Shown here in pieces: positions 43,449-56,250 of a stretch of 56,296 nt of DNA (the first letter of the stretch is position 1; each line of letters opens with the position of its first letter). Made by a program: the position numbers and the translations under genes. The stretch lies in NCBI GenBank assembly GCA_964022095.1, contig CAXHZO010000015.1, positions 1 through 56,296 on the forward strand, read 5' to 3'. The notes under the pieces are model-generated. The model saw nothing but the letters and a program-made list of their open reading frames with translations, was not told the origin of the DNA and ran no database searches. Origin of the DNA: an uncultured Arcobacteraceae bacterium (GTDB taxonomy: Bacteria; Campylobacterota; Campylobacteria; Campylobacterales; Arcobacteraceae).

Positions 43449-44042
43449 ATATCAACTGCAAAAGAAACTAAGAAAAATACTATTATAGAAAATGCTCTAA
43501 AACTATTTTCGAAAAAAGGTTTTTATAATACAACAATCCCTGATATTGCAAAAGCAATGAAAATGAGTGTTGGTAATATGTATAACTATTTCTCTTCAAA
43601 AGAAGAACTTGCGAAGTATGCAATTAAATATTCTACAAATATTTTAGCAGCTGAACTTAGAGAAATTAATAGTATGGAAATATCTTCAAAAGAAAAAATA
43701 TCTGTATTTGTAAAAAAGTATTTAGAAAATGTACAACAATCACCGGAGGTTATTGAGTATTTTTTAAGAGTTTATTTATCAAATAGAGAAGTATTCAAAC
43801 AAGGTTGTGAAGGTTTTTTATGCGTAGGCGAGTTTGTAACAGAAGTTATGATTCTACTTGATGAAGGTGCACAAAATAAAGAGTTTAGAGAACAAGACTT
43901 TTTCCCTGCATTTGCAATGATTATGGGATGTCTTGGTGGATTTGCTTTTCTTTCAGGTGAGAAAGTTTTAGATAAAGATTTATTAGATTATAGTGATGCC
44001 GTTGCTGATAATATTTATCGAGCTTTAAAGTATGACGAGTAA
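43449..44042 (+). CDS. TetR/AcrR family regulator with probable ATA start codon
   Basis: The frame upstream of ATG 43557 encodes KKNTIIENALKLFSKKGFYNTTIPDIAKA, the first TetR helices. Stop at 43437-43439, AAGGA at 43438-43442, ATA at 43449. Confidence 0.85.
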   Translation: MSTAKETKKNTIIENALKLFSKKGFYNTTIPDIAKAMKMSVGNMYNYFSSKEELAKYAIKYSTNILAAELREINSMEISSKEKISVFVKKYLENVQQSPEVIEYFLRVYLSNREVFKQGCEGFLCVGEFVTEVMILLDEGAQNKEFREQDFFPAFAMIMGCLGGFAFLSGEKVLDKDLLDYSDAVADNIYRALKYDE

Positions 44043-44916
44043 AAAAAAACCTACAGTCGTATGGTTTCAAGCAATCACATGTAATGGAAATACTCATTCA
44101 TTACTTAGCGCTAATTCAAATAGATTAGAGCTATTTTTTAATAGTTTTAATCTTATTTATCATCCAAGTCTTACTATTGATAAATCTTTAGAAGACATTC
44201 TTAATTCAAAAACAAAAATAGATTTTTTATTAATAGAAGGTTCTGTTTCTAATAATAAGAAATTTTTTCAAATCTCTGATGATTCAACATATAATCATTT
44301 ACAAAAACTTATAAAAAAAGCAACATATGTTATTAGTGTTGGTTCTTGTGCTTCTTATGGCGGAATTCATTCTATGTTTAAAGAACATGAAGGTATTAAA
44401 AGTGTAGAAGAGTATTTTAGTAATAATTCTTTAGAGCATAAAATTATCAATTTAAGTGGTTGTCCTGTTCATCCTGAGTGGTTATTACAAACAATGTTTT
44501 CCTTAAAAGATTTTGCTTCAATAAAATTAGATGAAGATGGTAGACCAAAAGAGTTGTATAGTAGTTTAGTTCACCATGGCTGTACTAGAAATGAGTATTT
44601 TGAGTGGAAAGTAGAAGGGGAATTTGGTAAAAAAGAAGGATGCTTATTTTATGATCAAGGTTGTCGTGGTCCAATGACTCATGGCTCATGTAATAAAATA
44701 CTATGGAATGATGTTAGTAGTAAGACAAGAGCTGGCATGCCTTGTGTTGGATGTACTGAAAAAGATTTTCCAAGAAATAATATGTTAGAAACAAAGAAAA
44801 ATATTGGAATTCCACTACAAGTTCCACTGGGAATTTCTAAACGAGCATATCTATCAATTACAGGAATTGCAAAAACATTTAAAATTGATAGATTACATAA
44901 AAAACTAATGGATTAA
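44032..44916 (+). CDS. Cytoplasmic NiFe hydrogenase small subunit (group 2d-like)
   Basis: No Tat signal. CNGN, GSCASYGGI, SGCPVHP, HHGCTRNEYF, GCLF...GCRGP, PCVGCTE. Confidence 0.9.
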   Translation: MTSKKKPTVVWFQAITCNGNTHSLLSANSNRLELFFNSFNLIYHPSLTIDKSLEDILNSKTKIDFLLIEGSVSNNKKFFQISDDSTYNHLQKLIKKATYVISVGSCASYGGIHSMFKEHEGIKSVEEYFSNNSLEHKIINLSGCPVHPEWLLQTMFSLKDFASIKLDEDGRPKELYSSLVHHGCTRNEYFEWKVEGEFGKKEGCLFYDQGCRGPMTHGSCNKILWNDVSSKTRAGMPCVGCTEKDFPRNNMLETKKNIGIPLQVPLGISKRAYLSITGIAKTFKIDRLHKKLMD

Positions 44917-44919
44917 AAT

Positions 44920-46272
44920 TTGAAAACTGTTGATATAGTAGAAAGAATAGAGGGTGAAGCAAAACTTAATTGCTCATGGGAAAATGGAATTATAAGTGAT
45001 GCTCGAATTGATTTTTTAAATTTTAGAGGATTTGAGTATATGCTAGAGGGAAAAGCACCTTTAGATTCACTTATTTATACTCCAAGAATATGTGGTATTT
45101 GTGGGCAAGCTCATTTAAAAGCTACAGTTGATGCATTGGAAAATATTTATGAAAATATTGGTGAGAAGTTAGAAATTACCCCTAAAGCAAAACTACTTAG
45201 AGAAATTGGTCTTAATATTGAGATAATTGATTCTCATATTAAATGGTTTTACATGTTTATTTTACCAGATGTTATAAAGCTTGATACTCAAGACTTAGGG
45301 ATATATGAACCAATAAAAGGTAGAAGATGGCTTGAGAGTACAAAAGTTGCAAGTGAAACTATAAAGGCACTAGCAATTATAGGAGGTCAATGGCCACATA
45401 CTTCATATATGACTCCAGGTGGAGTTATGAGTGATCCTACATTATTAGATTTATCAGCTATGAATAGTTACTTAGATACTTCAATAAACTTTTTTGAAAG
45501 TGCAGTAGTAGGTCTTCCTTTTGATGATTACTTATCTTTTTCTAAACTTAAAGATTTAGATAAATTAAATGGTGACTTAAAGCAATTTAGTGATTTAGCA
45601 TTTAAATATTCACTTGATAAATATGGAAAATCATACGAAAGATTCATCACTTTAGGTGAAAGTTCTATATTTTGTTCTGGGAAGTATGATAAAAAAGTAG
45701 AAAAAAGTATTGATACAAGTAAAATCTTTGAGAGTGAAAAAAATACATTCACTATACATGATACTACTTCTGAAGATAAGCATACTTGGTCTAAATCAGT
45801 ACTTTATCAAAATAAATTTTATGAAACAGGTCCCCTTTCAAGAGCAATGGTTTCAAATAATAAATTTATTAAAAACATATACAAAGAGTACAAGGATAGT
45901 GTATATACTAGAGTACTAGCTAGGGTAAATGAGATTGCATTATTATTAAATGAAACAAAAAAACTAATCTCTCAAGTTGATATTTCTCAAGAATCATATA
46001 TTCAACCTAAAATAGATTTAAAGAGTTTAACAAATGTTTATGGAGAATCATCAATTGAAGCTACAAGAGGGTCTTTATATCATAAACTTGCGATAAATGA
46101 AGGTAAAATCTTTACTTATAATATTATTACTCCAACAGTTTGGAACTTAGGTCCAAAGTATAGCGATCAGCTGGGAATTGCACAAAATGCTATTATTGGT
46201 AGTCCAAGTATTGAAATTGCAAAAATCATCTTACGAAGTTTTGATGTATGTTCTGTATGCACTACTCATTAA
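44920..46272 (+). CDS. Cytoplasmic NiFe hydrogenase large subunit (group 2d-like)
   Basis: ERIEGE, L1 PRICGICGQAH, L2 SFDVCSVCTTH at the very C-terminus. Confidence 0.92.
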   Translation: MKTVDIVERIEGEAKLNCSWENGIISDARIDFLNFRGFEYMLEGKAPLDSLIYTPRICGICGQAHLKATVDALENIYENIGEKLEITPKAKLLREIGLNIEIIDSHIKWFYMFILPDVIKLDTQDLGIYEPIKGRRWLESTKVASETIKALAIIGGQWPHTSYMTPGGVMSDPTLLDLSAMNSYLDTSINFFESAVVGLPFDDYLSFSKLKDLDKLNGDLKQFSDLAFKYSLDKYGKSYERFITLGESSIFCSGKYDKKVEKSIDTSKIFESEKNTFTIHDTTSEDKHTWSKSVLYQNKFYETGPLSRAMVSNNKFIKNIYKEYKDSVYTRVLARVNEIALLLNETKKLISQVDISQESYIQPKIDLKSLTNVYGESSIEATRGSLYHKLAINEGKIFTYNIITPTVWNLGPKYSDQLGIAQNAIIGSPSIEIAKIILRSFDVCSVCTTH

Positions 46273-46362
46273 AAAATACTTCAATATAACCAAAAAATAA
46301 TTATTTAATACATATATAGTCATTAAAAGTATCAGGCTATTAATGGGCTATAATACAATAGT

Positions 46363-47281
46363 ATGATAGGAAAAAAAGGAGTTCCTATCAAAACTTTAAC
46401 AATTGGAAAGAAAATTATCTATTTAATAATAATTATCTCAATATTGGCTTTACATCAAGCTTCCTTATATTAAATTGGTTTGCAAGTCAAGCAGTAACAG
46501 AAACGTATATTAAAACAAAGAATGATTTAATATCTTTATCTAAAAATAGAATAGCTGCTAAATTAGATATTGGAATTTCAAATGCTATTGCTTTGTCTTC
46601 TAATGCAGATTTAAAAGTTTCTTTAAATGAAGAAGATAAAGAATTAGCCTTTGAAATATTTTCATCAGTAAACGATAATTATAAGAATAATACTAATTAT
46701 AAAAATATGAGAATACATATTCATAGAGCAGATGTCACGTCGTTTTTAAAAGTTTGGGACTCCGAAGATGAAAATGATGAGGACTTAAGTGAATCTAGAC
46801 CAACAATAAATAAAGTAAAAGAAACAAAAGCTCCTTTAAATAGTTTTGAAATTAGTGAGTTAGGACTAACTCTTAATTCTATTGTGCCTGTACTTGATTC
46901 TCGTAGATTAGGTGATAGTTATATTGGTTCTCTCGAACTTATTCAAAGTATAGATTCAATTGCAAAAATATTTGATAAAACAAAAGATGGATTTATTTTA
47001 CTTGTTGATAAAAAATTAATTTCTAAAAAATCAAAAGAAACTAAAATGATTCAAAATTATATTGTATCTCAAACTTTTGTAAGCAAAAATATTTTAGAAG
47101 ATTCAAAAAATATTAATATTAAACAACTGTTAAAAGATTCATTTTTTATTACTTCAAAGTATTTTTATGCATACGAAAATATAAAAGATTTCAAAGGAAA
47201 GAATATTGGTATTGCTTTACTTTCTAAGCCATTAAGTATTGTTAATAAAGATATTGAGAATGCAAAAGAGCTTATAAATAT
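46363..47281 (+). pseudogene. Methyl-accepting chemotaxis protein, 5' part (TM1 plus Cache-like sensor), frameshifted near 46443 and interrupted by the transposon
   Basis: KTLTIGKKIIYLIIIISI continues after a 1-nt shift as IGFTSSFLILNW... into the 46593 ORF, and joins in frame to the 3' part when the element is removed. Confidence 0.85.
47274..47281 (+). repeat. Left target-site duplication ATAAATAT
   Basis: Identical 8-mer at 53391-53398. Confidence 0.93.
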
Positions 47282-47305
47282 CGATATTATGTAGCAGATG
47301 CACAA
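47282..47305 (+). repeat. Left terminal inverted repeat CGATATTATGTAGCAGATGCACAA
   Basis: Reverse complement of 53367-53390 with one mismatch. Confidence 0.95.
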
Positions 47306-47366
47306 GACTTTTAGGCTAGTTTTCGGCTAAAATTTCAGTAATTTATTTTAATTATTGGAGTAAAAA

Positions 47367-47813
47367 ATGGCTGATTCTCACGTTATATCTGCACTATCAA
47401 AAAAAAGAGGTGAGCTTCTTGGCTCAATTAGACATTACAAAGAATTAATTTCATCTTTAGATAAAGACTTAGCTACTATAGATGCAACTATAAGAATATT
47501 TGAACCTGATTTTAAATTTGGTTCTACAAGAATCGTTAATAAACATAAAAGAAATAGATATTTTGAAACGGGTGAAGCAAGAAGACTTATTTTAGAAGCT
47601 CTTAAAGAGAAAAATGAACCTACAAGAACTGATGATTTAAGTGATATTGTTATGAATAAAAAATCTCTTAGTTTTGACAATGACTATGAACTTAAAAACT
47701 TTAGAAAATCAATTATAAGTGCATTAGGTACTTTAGAAAAAGATAATCTAGTTCAAAGAGTAGATAAAGAAGGTCTTGTTATTATCTGGAAGATTAAAGA
47801 GTTAGAGGATTAA
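47367..47813 (+). CDS. Transposon-associated hypothetical protein (coiled coil plus wHTH-like C-terminus)
   Basis: GGAG RBS. SHVISAL..KRGEL.G.I...DLATIDATIRIFEPD. Convergent with the transposase, with overlapping stops. Confidence 0.82.
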   Translation: MADSHVISALSKKRGELLGSIRHYKELISSLDKDLATIDATIRIFEPDFKFGSTRIVNKHKRNRYFETGEARRLILEALKEKNEPTRTDDLSDIVMNKKSLSFDNDYELKNFRKSIISALGTLEKDNLVQRVDKEGLVIIWKIKELED

Positions 47814-48826
47814 ATACCTAATCTTTCAGATAGTCTTTTGTTGCCTTGCCAATACCCATAAAACTCATTAGACACTAAAGAAGTTAAACATCTTGATAAA
47901 ATATCATCAAAAATCTCTTTATTTGATTTTCTTCTTGTATCTTCTCTATATGCAATTTCATTAGCATAATTAGATAAATATAAATTACCAATTTTATGTA
48001 AGTTACCATACTGCATTCTTCTAAATCTTGCATTATATGATTCACTTTGATTATTGTTTTCTCCATATACTCCTGAGTACTCTATTTGATGATTAACTCT
48101 ATTCATATCATAATGAGCAGTTAAATCGTCATAAGCATTTGATTCATCCGTATGGATTGAACTTCCAACTTTAATATATTTATGAGCTATAGTTTTAATA
48201 TCTGTAGAGTTTTCAGATTTTAAGATAAAAGTTTTAGTTTTTATTGCACCTACAGTTTCATCATTAAGCTCTGCTCTTTGTCTTAAAGAGATAACAACTC
48301 TTTTATTAGGCTTATGAACTTTTCTTCTATCAACTCTTTTATCTATTTGATTTTTTGGTCTTATATAGTGACCTACATATACACCGTCCATTTCACAAGT
48401 TCCTTCAAGCTTTTCATCTTCATTATAATCCATTAAAGATTCTCTAATCTTATGAGATAATACCCAAGCAGTTTTATATTGAACATCTAAATCTCTACTT
48501 AATTGTAAAGCTGAAATTGATTTAACTGCATTAGTAAATAAAGCAATTGCTAAAAGATATATTTTTAAAGGTTTTTTATGACTAGCAAAAATAGTTCCAC
48601 TAGTAACAGAAAATGTATGAAAACACTCTTTACATCTAAACTGCATTCTTGTTTTTAAAAAGTAATGTTTTTTAACTGAACCACAACAAGGACAAACTGG
48701 TTTACCATTAGTTGAACTCCATCTAACATTTTTAAATACTTCAAAAGCTTCCATATTAGACATCATCATAATTTTTACCATTGATAACTCTCTTGCTTTT
48801 GATGATAGTAGAAAATGTTGTGCCAT
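47810..48826 (-). CDS. IS1595-family DDE transposase
   Basis: Zn ribbon CPCC...CKEC, FSVTSGTIF, HTH ISALQLSRDLDVQYKTAW..HKIRE, EMDGVYVG, HTDES..Y, VNH..EY...NNQSES, Y.NEIAYRED. Confidence 0.93.
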   Translation of the reverse strand: MAQHFLLSSKARELSMVKIMMMSNMEAFEVFKNVRWSSTNGKPVCPCCGSVKKHYFLKTRMQFRCKECFHTFSVTSGTIFASHKKPLKIYLLAIALFTNAVKSISALQLSRDLDVQYKTAWVLSHKIRESLMDYNEDEKLEGTCEMDGVYVGHYIRPKNQIDKRVDRRKVHKPNKRVVISLRQRAELNDETVGAIKTKTFILKSENSTDIKTIAHKYIKVGSSIHTDESNAYDDLTAHYDMNRVNHQIEYSGVYGENNNQSESYNARFRRMQYGNLHKIGNLYLSNYANEIAYREDTRRKSNKEIFDDILSRCLTSLVSNEFYGYWQGNKRLSERLGI

Positions 48827-48992
48827 CTTTTATTCCTTAATGTTAAATGCTTTTTATAATATGTATTTTACACCTTGTTAGTTTAATTTCACATTAAATT
48901 GACTTAATTTTAAATGTAATTAGCATATTTTATAAGCTTAAATTAATATATTAATATGTAAAATACATCAAGATTAATACAAAGGTATTAAA

Positions 48993-49202
48993 ATGGATTT
49001 TGATACATTTTTAATAAAACTAAAAGAAGCTAGTTTATCAAAAGAGGAATTTGTGGAATTAACTGGAACAAACATGAATACCTTAAAAGGTTGGGCAACT
49101 GAGAGACAAGGTAGAAAAGTACAGCATTGGGTTGAGAGTTGGTTAAGTCTATATATGGATAATAAGAAAAAAGATATTGTAATTGAAGCATTAAGGAAAT
49201 AG
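48993..49202 (+). CDS. Small XRE/HTH-like DNA-binding protein (putative controller)
   Basis: LKEASLSKEEFVELTGTNMNTLKGW HTH pattern. Stop is 1 nt before the RM start. Confidence 0.75.
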   Translation: MDFDTFLIKLKEASLSKEEFVELTGTNMNTLKGWATERQGRKVQHWVESWLSLYMDNKKKDIVIEALRK

Positions 49203-49203
49203 T

Positions 49204-52200
49204 ATGCTAAAGCCAAATTTTATAAAAACTCATAATTTTATTAATATTATTTTGAAAAAGAAAGAGTTGCCATCAGGTTCAAAAGATTTTTTAATTAAAG
49301 AACTTCATAAATTAAACAACATTAATCCTGACGAGAGAGAAGAGAATCAAAAAACTTACATTAGAGATTTTTTATCTAATACTTTTGGATATAAAATTAA
49401 TACCGCTGGAGATATTGATTGGGCAATTTTAAATGAATTAAATAAAGTAGAAGTAATTATTGAAGTAAAAAGAATCAAAAATGATTCTGAAATGGTTACT
49501 AAAGAGAACTTCTTAAAAAAAGCTTTTTATGAAACAATTTTATACTTTATGAGAGAAAGAAATAAAAGCAATATTGATTTAAAACATATTGTTATCACAA
49601 ATATTAGTAGTTGGTTTGTTATAGATGCTACTGAATATGAAAGATTGTTTTGGAACAATAAAAAATTTAGAAAACAATTTTTAGATTGGGAAAATAAAAA
49701 AACTTTGGATAGTAAAACAGATTTTTTCTATGCTGAAATAGCAAAACCTTTTTGTGAATCCTTAAATAATTCAAGAAAAGTTTCATTGTTTGAAACAGAC
49801 AATGAATTAATTGATTTTACCCACTTTAATATCAAAGAATTACTTTTTAGTAATGCTGATAGAAATTTTTCTAATGTCTATAAACTTTTAAGTCCTGATA
49901 CCCTAATGAAAGATTTTTCTCCTAATGATGGAAATAGTTTAAATAAAAATTTTTATGATGAATTGCTTTATATTTTAGGACTGGAAGAAAAAAATATTAA
50001 TGGCAAGAAAAGAATTGTTAGAACTCAAAAAGAAATACAAGAGGGTTCTTTTTTTGAAAATATTTATACTAAACTTTACAGATATAACAAGCTATCTTCA
50101 AGTGAAGATGAAAATTTTAACAAAGTAATATCATTAATAATAGTATGGTTAAACAGGATATTATTTTTAAAATTATTTGAAAATCAATTAATTGGATTTG
50201 CAAAAGATGATAGTCTATCTTTTTTAAAAAATGAATTTATCAAAGATTTTGATGAGTTAGATAAATTATTCTTTGATGTGCTATCAAAAAAACCTGATGA
50301 TAGATATGAGGATATTAAAAAGAAGTTTAATTTTATTCCCTATTTGAATAGTTCTTTATTTGAAGAATCCGATGAAGAGAAGAATCTTATATTTATATCA
50401 CAGTTAGATTCAAATTCTAAAATTAAATTATACAAAAATACAGTTTTAAAAAATAAAGATGGAAAAAGATTAACTGGAGAAAGTACACTTATTGAATACT
50501 TATACGATTTTTTAAACTCATACAATTTCGGTAGCTTAAATAATAGCAACACGATAGAAGAACATCATAAAGAATTAATTAGTAGTTCGGTCTTAGGGTT
50601 AATTTTTGAAAAGATTAATGGGTATAAAGATGGTAGTTTTTATACTCCAAGTTATATAACTACTTTTATGTCAAGAAATATTCTTGAAAAAATGGTTTTT
50701 GACAAATTCAAAGAAATTAAAAATTGGAATTGTAAAACAATTGATGATTTATATGATAAAATAGATAATAAAATTGAAGCAAATGAAATAATAAATAGTT
50801 TGAAAATTTGTGATACTGCTGTTGGAAGCGGGCATTATTTGGTCTCTATGCTTAATGAAATGATTAGACTTAAATCAGAATTAGGGATACTTCTTGATAA
50901 GAATGGAAAGAGAATTAGAGACTATAAAGTATTAATAGAAAATGATGATTTAGCAATTAAAACTATTGATAATGAATATTTTACTTATCAAAAACCTAAA
51001 ACAGTAACAGAAAACCACTTAGTTCAAGAAACAATATTTTTAGAAAAACAGAAAATTATTGAAAACTGTTTATTTGGAGTTGATATAAATCCAAACTCAA
51101 TTAATATTTGCAGATTGAGACTTTGGATTGAACTTTTGAAAAGCACATATTATACAGAAGATAGTAATTTTGAATATCTTCACACTTTACCAAATATAGA
51201 TATAAATATTAAAACTGGAAATTCTTTGCTTACTAAATTCCCCTTGATAGACAATGAAAATATTCCAAAATCCTTAAAAAGTAAAATTGAAGATTATAAG
51301 TTATCTGTAAAAGAGTACAAAAGAACTGACAATAAATTATTAAAACATGAAATTAAAAATAAAATTAGAATTATGAAAGATGAGTTCACTAAAGATTTTA
51401 AAAATAATTCTCATAATATCGTAAAATTAAAAAGAATTTTAAATGGATACAATACTGCTAAAGAAGTCAAAAAAGGGTATATCCAACAATTTGGTTACGA
51501 AGGTTTAGTTAAAGACATTATTCTAAATTATGCAAATGATACAACTGATAGTTTATTTGATATTGGCAGTTCTATGAGTAAATCTCAAATTAAAGAGGCA
51601 AAAAAAATAAAGAAAGATATGCTAAAAACTATTAATTTATTATATAAAAATATAAAAAAAGCAGAAAATGACAAAATATATGAAAATTCTTTTGAATGGA
51701 GATTTGAATTTCCTGAAATTTTAGATGATGATGGAAAGTTTTTAGGGTTTGATGCAATAATAGGTAATCCGCCTTACATTAGAGAGCCTGACAATAAAGA
51801 TGCTTTTATTGGTTTACATGAATCACCTTGCTACAAAGGGAAAATGGATTTATGGTTTTTATTTGCTTGCAAGGGTATAGATTTATTAAAAGATAATGGA
51901 AGACTATCATTTATTGCTACAAATAATTGGGTGTCAAATTATGGTGCATCTAATTTCAGAAACAAGCTATTGCAAACCACCAAAATAGAAGAATATATTG
52001 ATTTTGGAGAATATTTTGTTTTTGATAGTGCAGATGTATTAACAATGATATTTACACTAAGTAAAACGAATGAGAATAATGATTACTTATGTAAATATTC
52101 TAAGGTTATTGATAAAACGATAAAAGAAGACGAGATAAAAGAATTCTTAAATAATGGTTCTAGTGAAAAAATAGAATGTTTTAACTCTTTAATGATTAAT

Positions 52201-53073
52201 GATAATTTAGTAGATAAGAATATTGTATTTTTGGATGATAAAACGACCAAGATACTAAATAAAATTCAAGATAAAAGAAATTTTGCTTTAGATGAGAAAA
52301 AAGAAATCACTAATGGTGTTCAAGTTCAACAAGAAAGAGTTAATAAAAAATCATTAGAAAAATTAGGCAAAAATTATAGATTAAATGAAGGCATTTTTAA
52401 TCTAACTACAGATGAGTTAGAGTATTTAAGTTTAAATGAAAATGAGTATGAAATTGTAAAACCACTTTATACTTCAAAAGAAATCAATAAATATAAAACT
52501 AACAAACAAAATCAGAATTGGGTTATTTACACAGATAGTAGTTTTAAAAATGTTGAAAAAATGGAAAATTATCCAAATTTAAAATATCACTTAGATAGAT
52601 TTAAAGAAGTAATTACTTCTGACAATAAACCTTATGGTATCCATAGAGCAAGAAATGAGTATTTCTTTAAAGGCGAGAAAATTCTTTCATTAAGAAAATG
52701 TTCTAATAGACCTACATTTAGTTATGTAGATTTTGATAGTTATGTGAACCAAGCATATTATGTAATTAAAACAGAAAGGGTAAACCTAAAATATCTCACA
52801 GCTTTTTTAAATTCAGATATTATAGCCTTTTGGTTGAAATTTAATGGAAAAATACAAGGAGGTAATTATCAAGTTGATAAAGAGCCATTGTTAAATATCC
52901 CATATTCTATCATTGAAGATGAGCATACAATCAATGAAATAATAAGCATAGTTGATTCTATCTCTGCATCTACTAACTCAATAGATTTAGAAGATGATTT
53001 AAATCAAATATTTTGGAACTATTATAAATTAGACAGTAATGAAATCAACTTTATTAAAAAGGCATTAAAATAA
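49204..53073 (+). CDS. Type IIG restriction-modification enzyme (Eco57I/Cj0031-like, N6-adenine MTase fused to endonuclease)
   Basis: N-terminal IDWAI...IIEVKR (PD-(D/E)xK), GSFYTP, motif I ICDTAVGSGHYL, FGVDIN, motif IV IGNPPY, C-terminal TaqI-like TRD. Confidence 0.92.
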   Translation: MLKPNFIKTHNFINIILKKKELPSGSKDFLIKELHKLNNINPDEREENQKTYIRDFLSNTFGYKINTAGDIDWAILNELNKVEVIIEVKRIKNDSEMVTKENFLKKAFYETILYFMRERNKSNIDLKHIVITNISSWFVIDATEYERLFWNNKKFRKQFLDWENKKTLDSKTDFFYAEIAKPFCESLNNSRKVSLFETDNELIDFTHFNIKELLFSNADRNFSNVYKLLSPDTLMKDFSPNDGNSLNKNFYDELLYILGLEEKNINGKKRIVRTQKEIQEGSFFENIYTKLYRYNKLSSSEDENFNKVISLIIVWLNRILFLKLFENQLIGFAKDDSLSFLKNEFIKDFDELDKLFFDVLSKKPDDRYEDIKKKFNFIPYLNSSLFEESDEEKNLIFISQLDSNSKIKLYKNTVLKNKDGKRLTGESTLIEYLYDFLNSYNFGSLNNSNTIEEHHKELISSSVLGLIFEKINGYKDGSFYTPSYITTFMSRNILEKMVFDKFKEIKNWNCKTIDDLYDKIDNKIEANEIINSLKICDTAVGSGHYLVSMLNEMIRLKSELGILLDKNGKRIRDYKVLIENDDLAIKTIDNEYFTYQKPKTVTENHLVQETIFLEKQKIIENCLFGVDINPNSINICRLRLWIELLKSTYYTEDSNFEYLHTLPNIDINIKTGNSLLTKFPLIDNENIPKSLKSKIEDYKLSVKEYKRTDNKLLKHEIKNKIRIMKDEFTKDFKNNSHNIVKLKRILNGYNTAKEVKKGYIQQFGYEGLVKDIILNYANDTTDSLFDIGSSMSKSQIKEAKKIKKDMLKTINLLYKNIKKAENDKIYENSFEWRFEFPEILDDDGKFLGFDAIIGNPPYIREPDNKDAFIGLHESPCYKGKMDLWFLFACKGIDLLKDNGRLSFIATNNWVSNYGASNFRNKLLQTTKIEEYIDFGEYFVFDSADVLTMIFTLSKTNENNDYLCKYSKVIDKTIKEDEIKEFLNNGSSEKIECFNSLMINDNLVDKNIVFLDDKTTKILNKIQDKRNFALDEKKEITNGVQVQQERVNKKSLEKLGKNYRLNEGIFNLTTDELEYLSLNENEYEIVKPLYTSKEINKYKTNKQNQNWVIYTDSSFKNVEKMENYPNLKYHLDRFKEVITSDNKPYGIHRARNEYFFKGEKILSLRKCSNRPTFSYVDFDSYVNQAYYVIKTERVNLKYLTAFLNSDIIAFWLKFNGKIQGGNYQVDKEPLLNIPYSIIEDEHTINEIISIVDSISASTNSIDLEDDLNQIFWNYYKLDSNEINFIKKALK

Positions 53074-53285
53074 TGCAAACCCTAGAATACAATAAGCAAA
53101 CTCATAAAATAACCCTCAATACTTATACGGAGGATGAATTCTTAGAATCAGAAATAGATATTACAGAACAAGTATCTACTTTGGTTATTGAAAAGATTTA
53201 TGATGATTACGATTTAGATAATGGAGATGAACTTCTAATCACTAAGAAAAAGTCTTTAAAAAATCATACAAAAATTAAGCTATAA
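53073..53285 (+). CDS. Small acidic hypothetical protein (70 aa), transposon cargo
   Basis: TAATG stop/start overlap with the RM gene. Confidence 0.7.
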   Translation: MQTLEYNKQTHKITLNTYTEDEFLESEIDITEQVSTLVIEKIYDDYDLDNGDELLITKKKSLKNHTKIKL

Positions 53286-53366
53286 AATTTTTTTGAAATT
53301 TTTTTCAAGGAAATTTCAAACAAGGTTTTCATTTTCAGAGAAACTGCGATTTTTTAAAATCTTGTT

Positions 53367-53390
53367 TTGTGCATTTGCTACATAATATCG
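53367..53390 (-). repeat. Right terminal inverted repeat
   Basis: TTGTGCATTTGCTACATAATATCG, followed by TSD ATAAATAT at 53391-53398. Confidence 0.95.
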
Positions 53391-54668
53391 ATAAATATTG
53401 CATTAATTCTTATGTCAATAATTATGCTTATTCTTTTTGTTTCGATTATTGCCTTAATGAATAATGTTGTTATTAAACCAATCAGAAATTTAGAAATAGG
53501 ATTAGTATCATTCTTTAAATATTTAAATAAAGAAAAAGAAGATACGGAACTTATTAGTATAAATTCAGAAGATGAAATAGGAATAATGGCAAAAGTTGTA
53601 AATGAAAATATTGAAAAGTCTAAAAATGAGATTGAAGAAGACAAAAAAGTTATATCTGATACTATTAATGTATTGACAAATTTCCAACAAGGGGATTTAT
53701 CTCAAAGAGTTAAAGAAAAATCAAATAATCCAGCTTTAAATGAATTAACTAATCTTTTAAATAAGATGGCTGTAAACTTAGAATCAAATATTGATAATAT
53801 ATTAAGTATTGTAGATTTATATTCTAATTATAACTATACAAAAAAAGTTATGACAAATGAACTTAAAGGTCATTTATTAAAATTATCAAATGGAATTAAT
53901 TCATTAGCTGATTCAACAACTAAAATGTTAATACAAAGTAAATCAAATGGATTAACATTACAAAATAGAGCACAATTATTACTTAAAGATGTTGATACCT
54001 TAAATAATAGTTCAACTAAAACAGCAGCAGCTTTAACAGAAGTTACAGAAAATGTTAGAAGTAACACTTCAAATGTTTCTGAAATGTCAGTATATGCAAA
54101 AGAATTAGCATTATCTTCAAGTGAAGGTCAGAATTTAGCCTCTCAAACAACTAACTCAATGGATGAAATAAATGAAAAAGTAACCGCAATTAATGAAGCA
54201 ATAACTGTTATTGATCAAATTGCATTCCAAACAAATATCTTATCATTAAACGCAGCAGTAGAAGCAGCAACTGCAGGGGAATCTGGTAAAGGTTTTGCAG
54301 TTGTTGCACAAGAAGTTAGAAACCTAGCAAGTAGAAGTGCCCAAGCAGCTAGCGAGATTAAAGAATTAGTAGAAGATGCAAGTTTTAAAGCTGATGAGGG
54401 TAAGAAAGTCACTGATTCAATGATTACTGGATATAATAAATTAAGTGGAAATATTGAGAATACTACAAAGCTTATTGATAGTATTCAAGTTTCATCAAAA
54501 GAACAATTACAAGCAATTGAACAAATTAGTGACACTGTAAATCAACTTGATCAACAAACTCAATTAAATGTTGAAGTGTCAAATAATACTCAACAAATAG
54601 CAGTTGAAACAAATAATATAGCTATTTTAATTGTGAATGAAACAAATGAAAAAGAGTTTGATGAATAA
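53391..54668 (+). pseudogene. Methyl-accepting chemotaxis protein, 3' part (TM2, HAMP, signalling domain)
   Basis: [15 protein letters not shown]2, [51 protein letters not shown]. Confidence 0.9.
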
Positions 54669-54681
54669 GATTAAAGAATAA

Positions 54682-54712
54682 TTTGACAACACTTATACCT
54701 TGTGTTGTCAAA
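54682..54712 (+). terminator. Hairpin after the MCP gene
   Basis: TTTGACAACAC/GTGTTGTCAAA 11-bp stem. Confidence 0.6.
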
Positions 54713-54830
54713 CTACTAAAATAACTATAGCAATACTATTTTTAAAAGACAAATAATGTTTACTTTTGTAACAAAAACTATAAAATATAAAAAAAGACTT
54801 TAAATTAAATCTAAATTATAAATTTTATTA

Positions 54831-55000
54831 ATAAATGAATGTCCATTCTTAATATAGTCCTAATAATCGATATTTATTAAAAGTATAAAAATAATTCAAA
54901 ATAATATTTGCTAGACAATTGCTACGAATCCCATAAATACGTTAAGTTTTTGTAAAGTTTAGTATTGCTAAGTTAAATTTATATAAATGAATGTTCATTT
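54831..55000 (+). promoter_or_regulatory. Two copies of a palindromic operator upstream of hydA
   Basis: ATAAATGAATGTCCATT at 54831-54847 and ATAAATGAATGTTCATT at 54983-54999. The second contains the palindrome AAATGAA-TG-TTCATTT. Confidence 0.65.
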
Positions 55001-55017: not shown

Positions 55018-56250
55018 ATGATAGATTCATCTGAGATGGTAAAAAAAGTTTTTACCCAAAAATCAGGGCGAGTGGAGACAAATAAGGGTGAGGAGTTTTA
55101 TAACTCTTTATATAAACAAGCAGAAACGAGGTTGGCAGATTTAAGAGCTCAAGAGCCACTTAAAGATATTGATCTTATGGATGTTATTGATAGCGAAGGC
55201 GTAAATAGAAGAGATTTCATGAAGTGGGTAAGTGCAACTACTGCTACACTTATGTTACCTCCTATGTTTGCACCACTAGTTGCCCAAGCAACTGAGCTTA
55301 TGAATAGAGTTCCAGTAGTATGGATTGAGTTACAAGACTGTGCTGGTAACTCAGAAGCACTTCTAAGATCATCTGCACCAACTGTTGATGATTTATTATT
55401 TGATGTTTTATCTTTAGAGTTCCATGAGACTTTACAAGCTGCAGCTGGTCATGATGCTGATAGACAACTTGAAGAAGCTGTTCATCACTTTAAAGATAAA
55501 TATCTATTATTTGTTGAAGGTGCAATTCCAATGGCTAATAATGGTCAATATGGAACTATTGGTGCTATGGGTGAAACTTTCCATGATCACTTAATTAGAA
55601 TGTCAAAAGATGCTGCTGCAGTAGTTGCAGTTGGTACTTGTGCAACATTTGGTGGAATTCCAGCAGCTGCTCCAAACCCAACTGGTGCAGTTGGAGTTAT
55701 GGATTTGGTAAAAGGTAAGCCAATTATTAATATCCCAGCATGTCCAGCAAACCCAGCTAATATGGTTGGAGTAATTTTACATTACGTTTTAACTGGTCAA
55801 ATTCCAGAATTAGATTCATTATTAAGACCTAAGTTTGCATTTGGTTACAGAATTCACGATAACTGTGAGAGAAGAGCTCACTTTGATGCTGGTGAGTTTG
55901 TTGAAGAGTGGGGTGATGAAGGTGCTAAAAACAACTTCTGTTTATACAAAGTTGGTTGTAAAGGTCCTATGACATTTAATAACTGTTCAATTATTAGATA
56001 TAACGATGGGGCAAATTGGCCTATTGGAGTTGGTCGTGGTTGTATTGGTTGTTCTGAGCCAGACTTTTGGGATAAATATGCTTATGAAAGACCAATGGCA
56101 AATGCTAATATTAAAGCGCCAACTGGTGGAGTAGAGAAAACTGTTGATGAATTTGGACTTGGATTATTAACAGCAACTACTATTGGTATTGGAGTTCACG
56201 CAGTTGCAAGTGCAGTAGCGGGAAAAAAATCAGATGAGGGAGAAGAATAA
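55018..56250 (+). CDS. hydA: Membrane-bound uptake NiFe hydrogenase small subunit
   Basis: Tat motif NRRDFMK, GTCATFGG, PACP, HDNCERR, CLYKVGCKGP, GCIGCSEP, C-terminal TM anchor. Confidence 0.93.
   Translation: MIDSSEMVKKVFTQKSGRVETNKGEEFYNSLYKQAETRLADLRAQEPLKDIDLMDVIDSEGVNRRDFMKWVSATTATLMLPPMFAPLVAQATELMNRVPVVWIELQDCAGNSEALLRSSAPTVDDLLFDVLSLEFHETLQAAAGHDADRQLEEAVHHFKDKYLLFVEGAIPMANNGQYGTIGAMGETFHDHLIRMSKDAAAVVAVGTCATFGGIPAAAPNPTGAVGVMDLVKGKPIINIPACPANPANMVGVILHYVLTGQIPELDSLLRPKFAFGYRIHDNCERRAHFDAGEFVEEWGDEGAKNNFCLYKVGCKGPMTFNNCSIIRYNDGANWPIGVGRGCIGCSEPDFWDKYAYERPMANANIKAPTGGVEKTVDEFGLGLLTATTIGIGVHAVASAVAGKKSDEGEE

Follow-up and report, generated by a model that had tools for sequence, protein, structure and literature searches.

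An IS1595-family unit transposon within a chemotaxis-receptor gene

The window analysed here, the whole stretch of 56,296 nucleotides from an uncultured Arcobacteraceae bacterium (assembly GCA_964022095.1, contig CAXHZO010000015.1, positions 1 to 56,296), contains a unit transposon of the IS1595 family at positions 47282–53390 (6,109 bp). The insertion interrupts a methyl-accepting chemotaxis gene, and the locus is arranged as follows.

46593–47273, + strand: chemotaxis-receptor gene, 5' part, with a dCache_3 sensor; its reading frame is now closed by a stop within the left terminal inverted repeat (47292–47294)
47274–47281, no strand: left copy of the target-site duplication (TSD), ATAAATAT; one copy is retained in the empty allele of run X8
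47282–47308, + strand: left terminal inverted repeat (IRL), 27 bp, beginning CGATATTATGTAGCA
47367–47813, + strand: acc148, predicted core gene, 148 aa, convergent with the transposase gene and overlapping it by 4 bp
47810–48826, − strand: 338-aa DDE transposase of the IS1595 family; zinc ribbon at its N-terminus (CPCC at 45, CKEC at 65)
48827–48992, no strand: intergenic control region from which the transposase and regulator genes diverge, with two palindromic boxes
48862–48872, no strand: palindromic box 1, TGTATTTTACA
48957–48967, no strand: palindromic box 2, TGTAAAATACA
48993–49202, + strand: putative regulator, 69 aa, opening the predicted cargo operon
49204–53073, + strand: cargo, predicted single-chain Type IIG restriction endonuclease-methyltransferase, 1289 aa
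53073–53285, + strand: p70, conserved 70-aa protein, whose start overlaps the stop of the cargo gene and which adjoins the right end
53364–53390, − strand: right terminal inverted repeat (IRR), 27 bp
53391–53398, no strand: right copy of the TSD, ATAAATAT
53399–54668, + strand: chemotaxis-receptor gene, 3' part, with a membrane helix, a weak sub-threshold HAMP match and an MCP signalling domain

The two terminal inverted repeats (TIRs) match at 25 of 27 positions, with 2 mismatches, and the 8-bp target duplication ATAAATAT is perfect in both copies. A search for the 27-mer end pattern with up to 3 mismatches recovered IRL and IRR as the only two sites in the window, and 100 shuffles yielded no match; across the full 2.57-Mb genome, the pattern again occurs at these two places only. 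A 24-nt TIR core is shared with the ends of related elements. There is one transposase inside the element and one in the entire genome, and the insertion is therefore a unit element. No G+C anomaly separates the element from its flanks, so that composition is silent on origin.

The original prediction had proposed an IS1595-family unit element with one transposase, bordered by a perfect 8-bp TSD, and each of these points was recovered: the transposase gene is single with no second IS, Pfam and NCBIfam models both match it, and ATAAATAT stands at both borders. The proposed 24-bp TIRs are real repeats, but their length is 27 bp, the 24 bp being a perfect-to-one-mismatch core.

The same prediction held that the empty site restores a host open reading frame; the frame was recovered in silico, and the empty allele was found in nature. 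Removal of 47282–53398 in silico gave a stop-free frame of 652 aa, which aligned end to end with chemotaxis receptors at 38–41% identity in all six relatives tried. In run X8, from another sample, contig record 19 joins 46616–47273 directly to 53391–54035, so an empty allele, exact to the base, exists in nature and the insertion is polymorphic. The filled site was found without differences in contigs of run X4. Because the empty-site allele, with 14 differences over 658 bases of left flank, still exists, the insertion is judged to be young. Chemotaxis genes are split by two related elements, one here and one in a genome of the same genus; chemotaxis genes as a favoured target were not established, given that other insertions of related elements hit a symporter gene or lie at unrelated positions.

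The mobility core: transposase and acc148

The transposase matched Pfam DDE_Tnp_IS1595 (PF12762; 9e-37, profile positions 1–153 of 153), Pfam Zn_ribbon_IS1595 (PF12760; 3.3e-13) and NCBIfam transpos_IS1595 (NF033547; 124.8 bits against a cut-off of 75). Residues D147, D227 and E262 are unchanged across 19 relatives, and the protein carries the string E262-SYNARFRR.

The neighbouring acc148 gene had been taken at first for accessory cargo, a view that its gene neighbourhood overturns, since a homologue also stands beside alphaproteobacterial IS1595 transposases. A convergent gene of 148–172 aa abuts the IS1595 transposase gene in 4 of 4 alphaproteobacterial plasmid loci, acc148 is homologous to such a neighbour (hhalign 99.1% for the one compared), and the acc148 plus transposase pair occurs cargo-free in Alphaproteobacteria. 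Judged from these comparisons, acc148 is a core partner of the transposase and not an accessory passenger. Its family comprises 421 clusters, and it had no match in Pfam. An AlphaFold2 model (pLDDT 89) has a long N-terminal helix (coiled-coil) and a C-terminal winged-helix domain, and the best Foldseek rows were winged-helix regulators (E 2e-3 to 5e-2). A candidate assignment as a binary-toxin subunit (NCBIfam E 0.0027, 17 bits against a cut-off of 40) was rejected as coiled-coil noise.

The cargo enzyme and a conserved gene at the right end

The PADLOC profile REase_MTase_IIG (PDLC03612) matched the cargo protein at E 6e-247, with residues 7–1285 aligned to profile positions 6–1244 of 1247; the cargo had been described beforehand as an intact Type IIG gene, and this profile covers its full length. 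Pfam matches in the same protein were DUF7149, DUF7814 and Eco57I. Inspection located D70/D72...E85-x-K87, DTAVGSG from 537 and NPPY at 855, which we take to be the motifs known as D..ExK, DTAVGSG and NPPY. The protein is thus predicted to be an intact Type IIG enzyme that combines a nuclease, a gamma-class N6-adenine methyltransferase and target recognition in a single polypeptide.

The p70 gene adjoins the right end also in elements with unrelated cargo. Its family comprises 130 clusters and has no match in Pfam. The model (pLDDT 86.6) has an acidic body of three strands and a helix, followed by a basic tail, and fold searches gave no match (Foldseek best E 0.3; VIA-align best Z 2.9; no usable match in the Atlas). 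A joint fold prediction of the transposase, acc148 and p70, with p70 as partner, scored 0.00, which bears neither way. All five frames of the element are open and full length, and the regulator, cargo and p70 genes are tightly packed in one predicted operon. No RNA run was among the matches listed for the locus.

A putative regulator and its palindromic boxes

The 69-aa protein had been labelled a helix-turn-helix (HTH) protein. In its favour are language-model look-alikes in the Atlas, which are Cro/C1 HTH_3 clusters (0.92) and serve as a lead only, and the position of its gene; against it, the protein matched nothing in Pfam, NCBIfam or PADLOC, including any HTH model, and its best PDB profile match had an E of 0.15. 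The regulator slot of relatives is occupied by DUF6471 or HTH_3 proteins, and at least three apparently unrelated classes of small protein are found in this slot across elements. A relationship of the 69-aa class to DUF6471 was not supported: the profile comparison gave 3% probability, and the two therefore look unrelated.

Both palindromic boxes have TGTA and TACA half-sites, and in all six elements compared that carry the 69-aa regulator class these half-sites do not vary; elements with DUF6471 regulators have different conserved boxes. The boxes may act as operators. Backbone similarity to elements with other regulators ends at 48838–48862. As this leaves only about 35 bp of shared backbone ahead of the transposase gene, the promoter of that gene would have to be placed within the regulator module, by its boxes. 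A promoter and terminator scan of the element gave 41 promoter-like sites against a shuffle mean of 46.3 and is uninformative in such AT-rich DNA.

In restriction-modification operons with a controller (C) protein, a small DNA-binding protein is encoded first and palindromic boxes lie upstream. The element resembles these operons in both respects, with a small putative regulator gene in first place and palindromic boxes upstream, and it differs from them in that no homology to C proteins was shown. Ordinary C-controlled operons are not known to have boxes in a region shared with a transposase gene, unlike this element.

A lineage of related elements with exchangeable restriction cargo

The same ends and frame were found in 14 of 184 Arcobacteraceae genomes by a TIR core search and also in other Campylobacteria families, and the same TIR core occurred in at least 124 metagenome stretches. 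Related elements have ends CGATATT or CGGTATT and sizes of 3.8–8.8 kb. One complete genome holds three 100%-identical copies of 4,602 bp at three sites. An element with about 89% identity and the same enzyme lies at another site in another genus (L016/L033), so that the unit recurs beyond the present locus; its confinement to one site and one cargo, together with a lack of attributable methylation or restriction, had been named in advance as grounds for giving up the prediction.

Among TIR pairs with both flanks available, a perfect 8-bp duplication was present in 15 of 26, or 13 of 21 after merging of repeated loci, and in 3 of 4 elements tested in the other families. The remaining 11 of 26 pairs have no perfect duplication (including two of the three identical copies in one genome), and therefore some copies have been rearranged or have moved by other routes. 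Degenerate and non-autonomous relatives are also present, in the form of 142-bp end pairs, 799-bp copies with acc148 only, cargo-only copies and split transposase genes. At one locus (L050/L066), two element copies lie tail to tail.

In these elements, the cargo is nearly always a restriction system. A DNA methyltransferase gene or domain was found in 37 of 40 distinct cargo regions of TIR-defined elements, many of them from cut metagenome contigs and with duplicates removed by eye, and in 11 of 12 sampled loci of other Campylobacteria families. The restriction types span IIG, IIB-like, IIS, IIP-like and III. Wadjet genes (JetC/JetD) occupy two of the 40 regions, and one region, which is cut, shows an HNH gene only. 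The suggestion that the slot downstream of the presumed HTH gene is a variable site for defence cargo was thus borne out, with other restriction systems or Wadjet standing there in relatives.

Comparison with known mobile elements

Within the IS1595 family, members of the ISNha5 group are 3.4–7.9 kb long, with ends starting CGGnnTT, passenger genes and a DDE motif followed by R/K. The CGATATT/CGGTATT ends, the 3.8–8.8 kb sizes and the E262-SYNARFRR string of the present lineage are compatible with these features. Transporter ISs (tISs) of this family, with passenger-carrying subgroups such as ISNha5, were reportedly described by Siguier, Gagnevin and Chandler in 2009. ISNha5 is presented in the cited part of PMC11891212 as an IS1595 member with transcription-regulator passengers, and tISs are defined there as single-transposase ISs carrying, inside their ends, genes unneeded for transposition. 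The element described here has a restriction gene between the TIRs of a single-transposase element, and shares with tISs and ISNha5 the DDE_Tnp_IS1595 domain with a zinc ribbon, short inverted ends, an 8-bp duplication and passengers inside the ends. Cargo-carrying IS1595 elements are already known; our literature search did not find in print this lineage with its restriction-dedicated layout, that is, the four-module frame, the 70-aa end gene and the near-exclusive restriction cargo across Campylobacteria.

A similar case is a transposon-like restriction unit in Neisseria gonorrhoeae NCCP11945 (Furuta, Abe and Kobayashi 2010, PMC2853133). According to the section of that report relied on here, inverted repeats of 26 bp and a duplication of 8 bp mark the unit, the site is unoccupied in a relative, and the unit brings together a transposase-like gene (COG3677) and a gene for a Type IIG enzyme, all of which recall the present element. 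It is described there as a single case in which the Type IIG gene is truncated, the transposase is likely inactive and the mover is left open. Compared with what that section covers, the genes of transposase and enzyme are intact here, the family of the mover is identified, the lineage is large and the cargo is exchangeable. Tn7-like transposons, in the portion of Benler et al. 2021 (PMC8649781) used for comparison, likewise combine a frame with a defence-rich cargo region; they differ in having other, multi-protein machinery, a far larger size and mixed cargo, whereas the present elements are compact, use a single transposase and carry almost only restriction systems.

Proposed mechanism and alternative explanations

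The above analyses make it very probable that the 6,109-bp unit is an autonomous transporter IS of the IS1595 family, built of four modules, with a Type IIG cargo in a slot that has been refilled across the lineage. The modules would be the acc148 and transposase core, the regulator with its own palindromic boxes, the cargo slot, and p70 at the right end. The DDE transposase, presumably still active, would act on the two 27-bp ends and insert everything between them, duplicating 8 bp of the target, and the unit would in this way have landed in the chemotaxis-receptor gene and split it. The enzyme, if active as its sequence predicts, would be expected to place methyl groups on adenine at its recognition site and to cleave DNA that lacks this modification, so that one jump or transfer would bring a restriction barrier together with a new methylation mark, possibly with an anti-phage effect. 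Recombination in the conserved flanks is the most likely route by which other restriction systems could have refilled the slot, because breaks in similarity fall exactly at gene borders.

We tentatively suggest, as a possibility that we would not yet favour, that the restriction operon and the transposase are both under the control of the small regulator, within a Campylobacteria IS1595 lineage specialised for restriction systems. If so, transposase and cargo would both fire in a naive cell without the regulator and both would shut down as the regulator builds up, and the establishment of restriction would therefore be coupled to a burst of transposition. The acidic p70 and the winged-helix acc148 could be further parts of such a coupled programme.

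The cargo could alternatively serve mainly as an epigenetic or addiction module, which stabilises the insertion because cells die once they have lost it, in place of phage defence; we regard this as conceivable but rather doubtful. The cargo is nearly always a restriction system, of any type, as would be expected if the element itself gained from it. Weakness as addiction modules is a property of single-chain Type IIG enzymes that counts against this explanation, and the slot also accepts Wadjet genes, which are anti-plasmid. The cited part of PMC2853133 describes how Type II systems can cause post-segregational killing. Defence and addiction roles are compatible with each other.

It is unlikely that the locus is instead a fossil, in which a real insertion, with its transposon and perhaps its enzyme now inactive, is inherited vertically as an island and kept by restriction addiction. 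The single genome copy and the differences at 2 of 27 end positions count against an autonomous transporter IS and point in the direction of a fossil, as does the existence of degenerate and non-autonomous relatives. However, none of the five frames is interrupted or shortened, the transposase retains its catalytic D, D and E as well as the zinc ribbon, the persisting empty-site allele marks the insertion as young, and a relative genome carries three identical copies. That the unit was not moved by its own transposase, a restriction operon and an IS having become neighbours by chance or as parts of a composite and the 8-bp repeat having another origin, is highly improbable, since in spite of relatives without matching duplications and the tail-to-tail copies at L050/L066, the same two ends bracket transposase and cargo in dozens of loci with differing cargo and flanks, the empty site matches to the nucleotide, and the unit has a single transposase gene and no second IS.

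Movement of restriction systems between genomes is known, and the vehicles have rarely been pinned down. As an autonomous transporter IS, the element would be an explicit vehicle, compact and with a slot whose content can be exchanged, that spreads Type II (G, B-like, S, P-like) and Type III systems, and now and then Wadjet, across an entire bacterial class. It would allow a restriction barrier and a methylation motif to be gained in one step, at the price of a redundant gene. The natural carrier and empty-site alleles offer a clean comparison of methylomes and phage resistance, the lineage supplies Type IIG enzymes that are close relatives of one another but have exchanged recognition domains, and the two conserved small proteins are candidates for roles in transposition or establishment.

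Occurrence in plasmid and viral sequence collections

The plasmid collection contained no full copy of the element; the sole trace was on two Arcobacter plasmids, where 129 bases match acc148. The nearest plasmid-borne transposases were alphaproteobacterial, at 36–45% identity. Among viral contigs there was one TIR match, which lies near the end of a 39.6-kb contig.

Element ends, empty site and genomic setting

The direct repeat ATAAATAT occurs at 47274–47281 and again at 53391–53398, immediately outside a pair of inverted repeats (47282–47308 and 53364–53390). This bears out the original prediction of a transposase-bearing region with inverted ends and an 8-bp target site duplication, except that the ends, described as 24 bp, are 27 bp long with two mismatches. 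The 27-mer pattern, allowing up to three mismatches, matches two sites in the window, which are the element ends, and is absent from all 100 shuffles. Across the entire assembly (2.57 Mb) the end core of 24 nt is found only at these two places, and the transposase is present as a single copy. The G+C content is ~24–29% both within the element and outside it.

The insertion splits a chemotaxis-receptor gene, in which the dCache_3 sensor part stops inside the left repeat and the MCP signalling part is located downstream of the right repeat. In silico deletion of the element together with one copy of the direct repeat yielded a stop-free frame of 652 aa that aligns over its full length with receptors of all six relatives tried (38–41% identity). 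The strongest evidence comes from public contigs of four sequencing runs aligned to window positions 45800–54900. A 1,317-bp contig of run X8 covers 46616–47273 and then 53391–54035 and is an exact empty site with a single ATAAATAT, with 14 differences from the window in its left part and 2 in its right part. The filled site is present, with zero differences, in contigs of run X4, and the match of a contig of run X9 starts at 53391 (the right part only, among the matches listed). The predicted empty site that restores the host frame is therefore also represented by a natural allele. Overall, this is a real and young element of a known kind.

The neighbours of the element are housekeeping genes (fumarase, aconitase B and two NiFe hydrogenase sets), and the locus is thus not a defence island. 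The hydrogenase sets flank the split chemotaxis gene, with small and large subunits upstream (43557–46272) and another small subunit downstream (55018–56250).

Genes and modular organization

Five open frames lie between the ends:

Open frames of the element
47367–47813, plus strand: acc148, 148 aa, without Pfam match
47810–48826, minus strand: transposase, 338 aa, with an IS1595 zinc ribbon and an ISXO2-like DDE domain
48993–49202, plus strand: 69-aa regulator-slot protein, no model match
49204–53073, plus strand: cargo enzyme, 1289 aa, Pfam DUF7149, DUF7814 and Eco57I
53073–53285, plus strand: p70, 70 aa, no database match

The transposase scores above the NCBIfam IS1595 cut-off. The cargo had been read as an intact Type IIG system, and the enzyme matches a PADLOC Type IIG model end to end (E 6e-247). 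By inspection it retains a D..ExK nuclease motif (D70/D72, E85 and K87), together with DTAVGSG from residue 537 and NPPY at 855. The activities of enzyme and transposase are predicted from sequence. The AlphaFold2 model of acc148 (pLDDT 89) has an N-terminal helix of 44 residues and ends in a winged helix; the top rows of its Foldseek search belong to winged-helix regulators (Fur, PadR, MarR; E 2e-3 to 5e-2), with no row below 0.001. The p70 model (pLDDT 86.6), a three-stranded sheet and a helix with a basic tail, has no match among known folds, and 15 of the first 55 residues of the protein are acidic and 3 basic.

DNA comparison of related elements resolves these genes into modules. A left backbone (left inverted repeat, acc148 and transposase) is common to the elements up to 48838–48862 whatever comes next, similarity extends to 49201 in those with the same 69-aa regulator, and it returns at 53069–53078, the start of the p70 gene, to continue to the right end. 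From these breaks, the cargo is exactly the span from the regulator stop to the p70 gene start.

Small proteins of at least three kinds occupy the regulator slot, namely the 69-aa class, an 86–96-aa class and Pfam DUF6471, while more distant relatives have HTH_3 proteins there. By profile comparison (3%), the 69-aa class is unrelated to DUF6471. For the 69-aa protein, the Atlas gives Cro/C1 HTH clusters as look-alikes (0.92), which is a lead to its type only. Palindromic TGTA-N3-TACA boxes in the divergent region (48862–48872 and 48957–48967) are kept in all six elements of the 69-aa class, whereas four of seven aligned DUF6471-class regions keep other boxes instead, suggesting that each regulator is accompanied by its own putative operators. 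Because the backbone reaches only ~35 bp upstream of the transposase start, the transposase promoter would lie within the regulator module, a hint that this module may control cargo and transposase alike.

Related elements sharing these ends

A scan for transposase relatives gave nine loci, with titles mostly of Arcobacter, Aliarcobacter or Arcobacteraceae. The 24-nt end core (up to two mismatches) occurs in 14 of 184 family genomes (13 of the 152 of good quality), with zero control matches in the same scan, and in at least 124 metagenome stretches, for 80 of which flanks were retrieved. One complete genome, listed as Malaciobacter molluscorum LMG 25693, carries three 4,602-bp copies, 100% identical, at three sites. 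Another relative (loci L016/L033), at a different site in another genus, is ~89% identical over 4.36 kb and encodes the same enzyme as the window (94% protein identity). Perfect 8-bp direct repeats bound 15 of the 26 end pairs with both flanks available, or 13 of 21 once we merged repeated loci; two of the 11 pairs (8 distinct) without a perfect repeat are among the three identical LMG 25693 copies. Element sizes range from 142-bp end pairs through 799-bp copies with acc148 only to 8.8 kb.

Cargo of the slot

Cargo frames were scanned in every element with the slot on its contig (L016/L033 by BLAST only). After repeating loci were merged by eye and L015, cut directly after the regulator, was excluded, 40 distinct cargo regions remained, of which 37 contain a DNA methyltransferase domain. 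The proposed variable defence-cargo slot after the regulator is borne out by the differing systems of these relatives:

Cargo groups
Single-chain Type IIG or IIL-like enzymes (many)
N6_Mtase proteins whose specificity subunit is separate
AlwI-type and FokI-type enzymes with two methylases
N6_N4 or D12 methylases accompanied by a second gene, with matches to PADLOC Type II nuclease models in some
D12 methylase with an HNH protein
EcoRI-type methylase together with a DUF262-HNH nuclease
C5 methylases
Type III Mod-Res pair
D12 methylase with a HerA-like ATPase

In two loci (L038, 321–4936; L085, 128–1577) Wadjet JetC/JetD fill the slot, immediately preceding p70 and the right end; these contigs are cut, which places JetA/JetB and the transposase side outside view. 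On another cut contig (L040) an HNH gene alone is visible. Some elements (L036, 4563–6168; L057, 6028–8201; L162, 6750–8264) have a further, smaller cargo region after p70 and before the right end, with recurrent calcineurin-like metallophosphoesterase genes and small frames without assigned function. The enzyme of L063 is 73–85% identical to that of the window over residues 1–700 but only 20–37% from 900 on: its recognition domain is swapped.

Spread in Campylobacteria and origin of the core

The acc148 profile has matches in 25 of the 401 Campylobacteria genomes sampled, spread over 6 of 14 families. Fifteen of these places were retrieved; in 12, acc148 adjoins a transposase 59–78% identical to that of the window, and the other three (L169, L170, L176) were left out, with no transposase beside acc148. 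In 11 of these 12 loci outside the family, a DNA methyltransferase is encoded among the genes that follow the small regulator; those of the twelfth (L173) gave no match. Among the systems are AlwI, HaeII, a Type III pair, and LlaJI together with two C5 methylases plus an AAA protein. Repeats of the same kind (CGATATTATGTAG or CGGTATTATGTAG) are present in all four other-family loci checked for ends, three of which have a perfect 8-bp duplication. A more distant element is found in the same-genus genome G001 (L177, 1971–7230; transposase 58% identical), with a 990-aa N6_Mtase cargo but without a p70 frame of at least 65 aa. It also splits a chemotaxis-receptor gene, a different one, with dCache_1 and a weak sub-threshold HAMP match on one side of the insertion and MCPsignal on the other; such genes may be preferred or merely tolerated targets.

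The nearest plasmid-borne transposases are alphaproteobacterial (36–45% identity, annotated as IS1595 family). In all four such loci inspected, a convergent hypothetical gene of 148–172 aa abuts or overlaps the transposase gene, and none has an annotated restriction gene adjacent; the one partner compared is an acc148 homologue (hhalign 99.1%, E 1e-18). One of these two-gene units sits between two annotated oxidoreductase gene pieces. Thus acc148 and the transposase form an old two-gene core, and acc148, originally taken for an accessory cargo protein, is rather a core partner. The regulator-cargo-p70 operon was added to this core and is seen here in Campylobacteria alone.

Relation to described elements

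Transporter insertion sequences, including passenger-carrying IS1595 members, have been described since 2009 (PMC11891212). Furuta et al. 2010 reported a single Neisseria unit that combines 26-bp repeats and an 8-bp duplication with a truncated Type IIG gene and a COG3677 transposase that is probably inactive, and cite the same 2009 description for restriction or methylase genes with IS elements on either side (PMC2853133). Searching outside subscription journals, ISfinder and REBASE, we found no literature description of this lineage or of a restriction-dedicated IS1595 group, nor, outside subscription journals, a published account of DUF6471. Our analysis supports the overall reading of an IS1595 cargo transposon and extends what is known by a four-module frame including two conserved proteins without assigned role, class-wide spread with near-exclusive restriction cargo, and possible joint governance of cargo and transposase by one regulator module.

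Derivative and unusual copies

Transposase-less mini-elements of 799 bp with both ends (L027, 2387–3185; L061, 1465–2263; L115, 1785–2583) contain nothing beyond acc148 and a 71-aa frame. The protein collection has many acc148 homologues from contigs of 0.6–1.2 kb, and such minis may therefore be common. Almost empty end pairs of 142 or 143 bp (L108, 3577–3718; L157, 301–443; L113, 4409–4550; L131, 183–324) look like MITE-like derivatives of the family; those of L108 and L157, of one kind, have the perfect 8-bp duplication TAAAGTGC on both sides. Other copies are non-autonomous, with no transposase: in L070 (9001–13351; also L064) the ends and a perfect duplication surround a 1262-aa fused restriction-methylase-specificity protein alone, and in L111 (3907–6158) they enclose a 613-aa methylase and p70.

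One 38-kb metagenome contig (L050 and L066) carries two tail-to-tail copies, ~4.6 kb apart, of an element whose cargo proteins are 797 and 368 aa long, with a small set of mirrored frames between them; the arrangement may represent either a composite or an inverted duplication. In L022/L039 the transposase gene is reduced to its last third (10031–10327 in L022), adjoining acc148, with five large frames of 382–797 aa upstream of the remnant, and another element may have inserted in the gene. Related elements also occur on short contigs binned in unrelated phyla, a Rhodanobacter MAG (L017, whose contig is precisely one element, end to end) and a Candidatus Gracilibacteria MAG (L020); a repeated element of low G+C seems more likely to have been mis-binned here than to have crossed between phyla.
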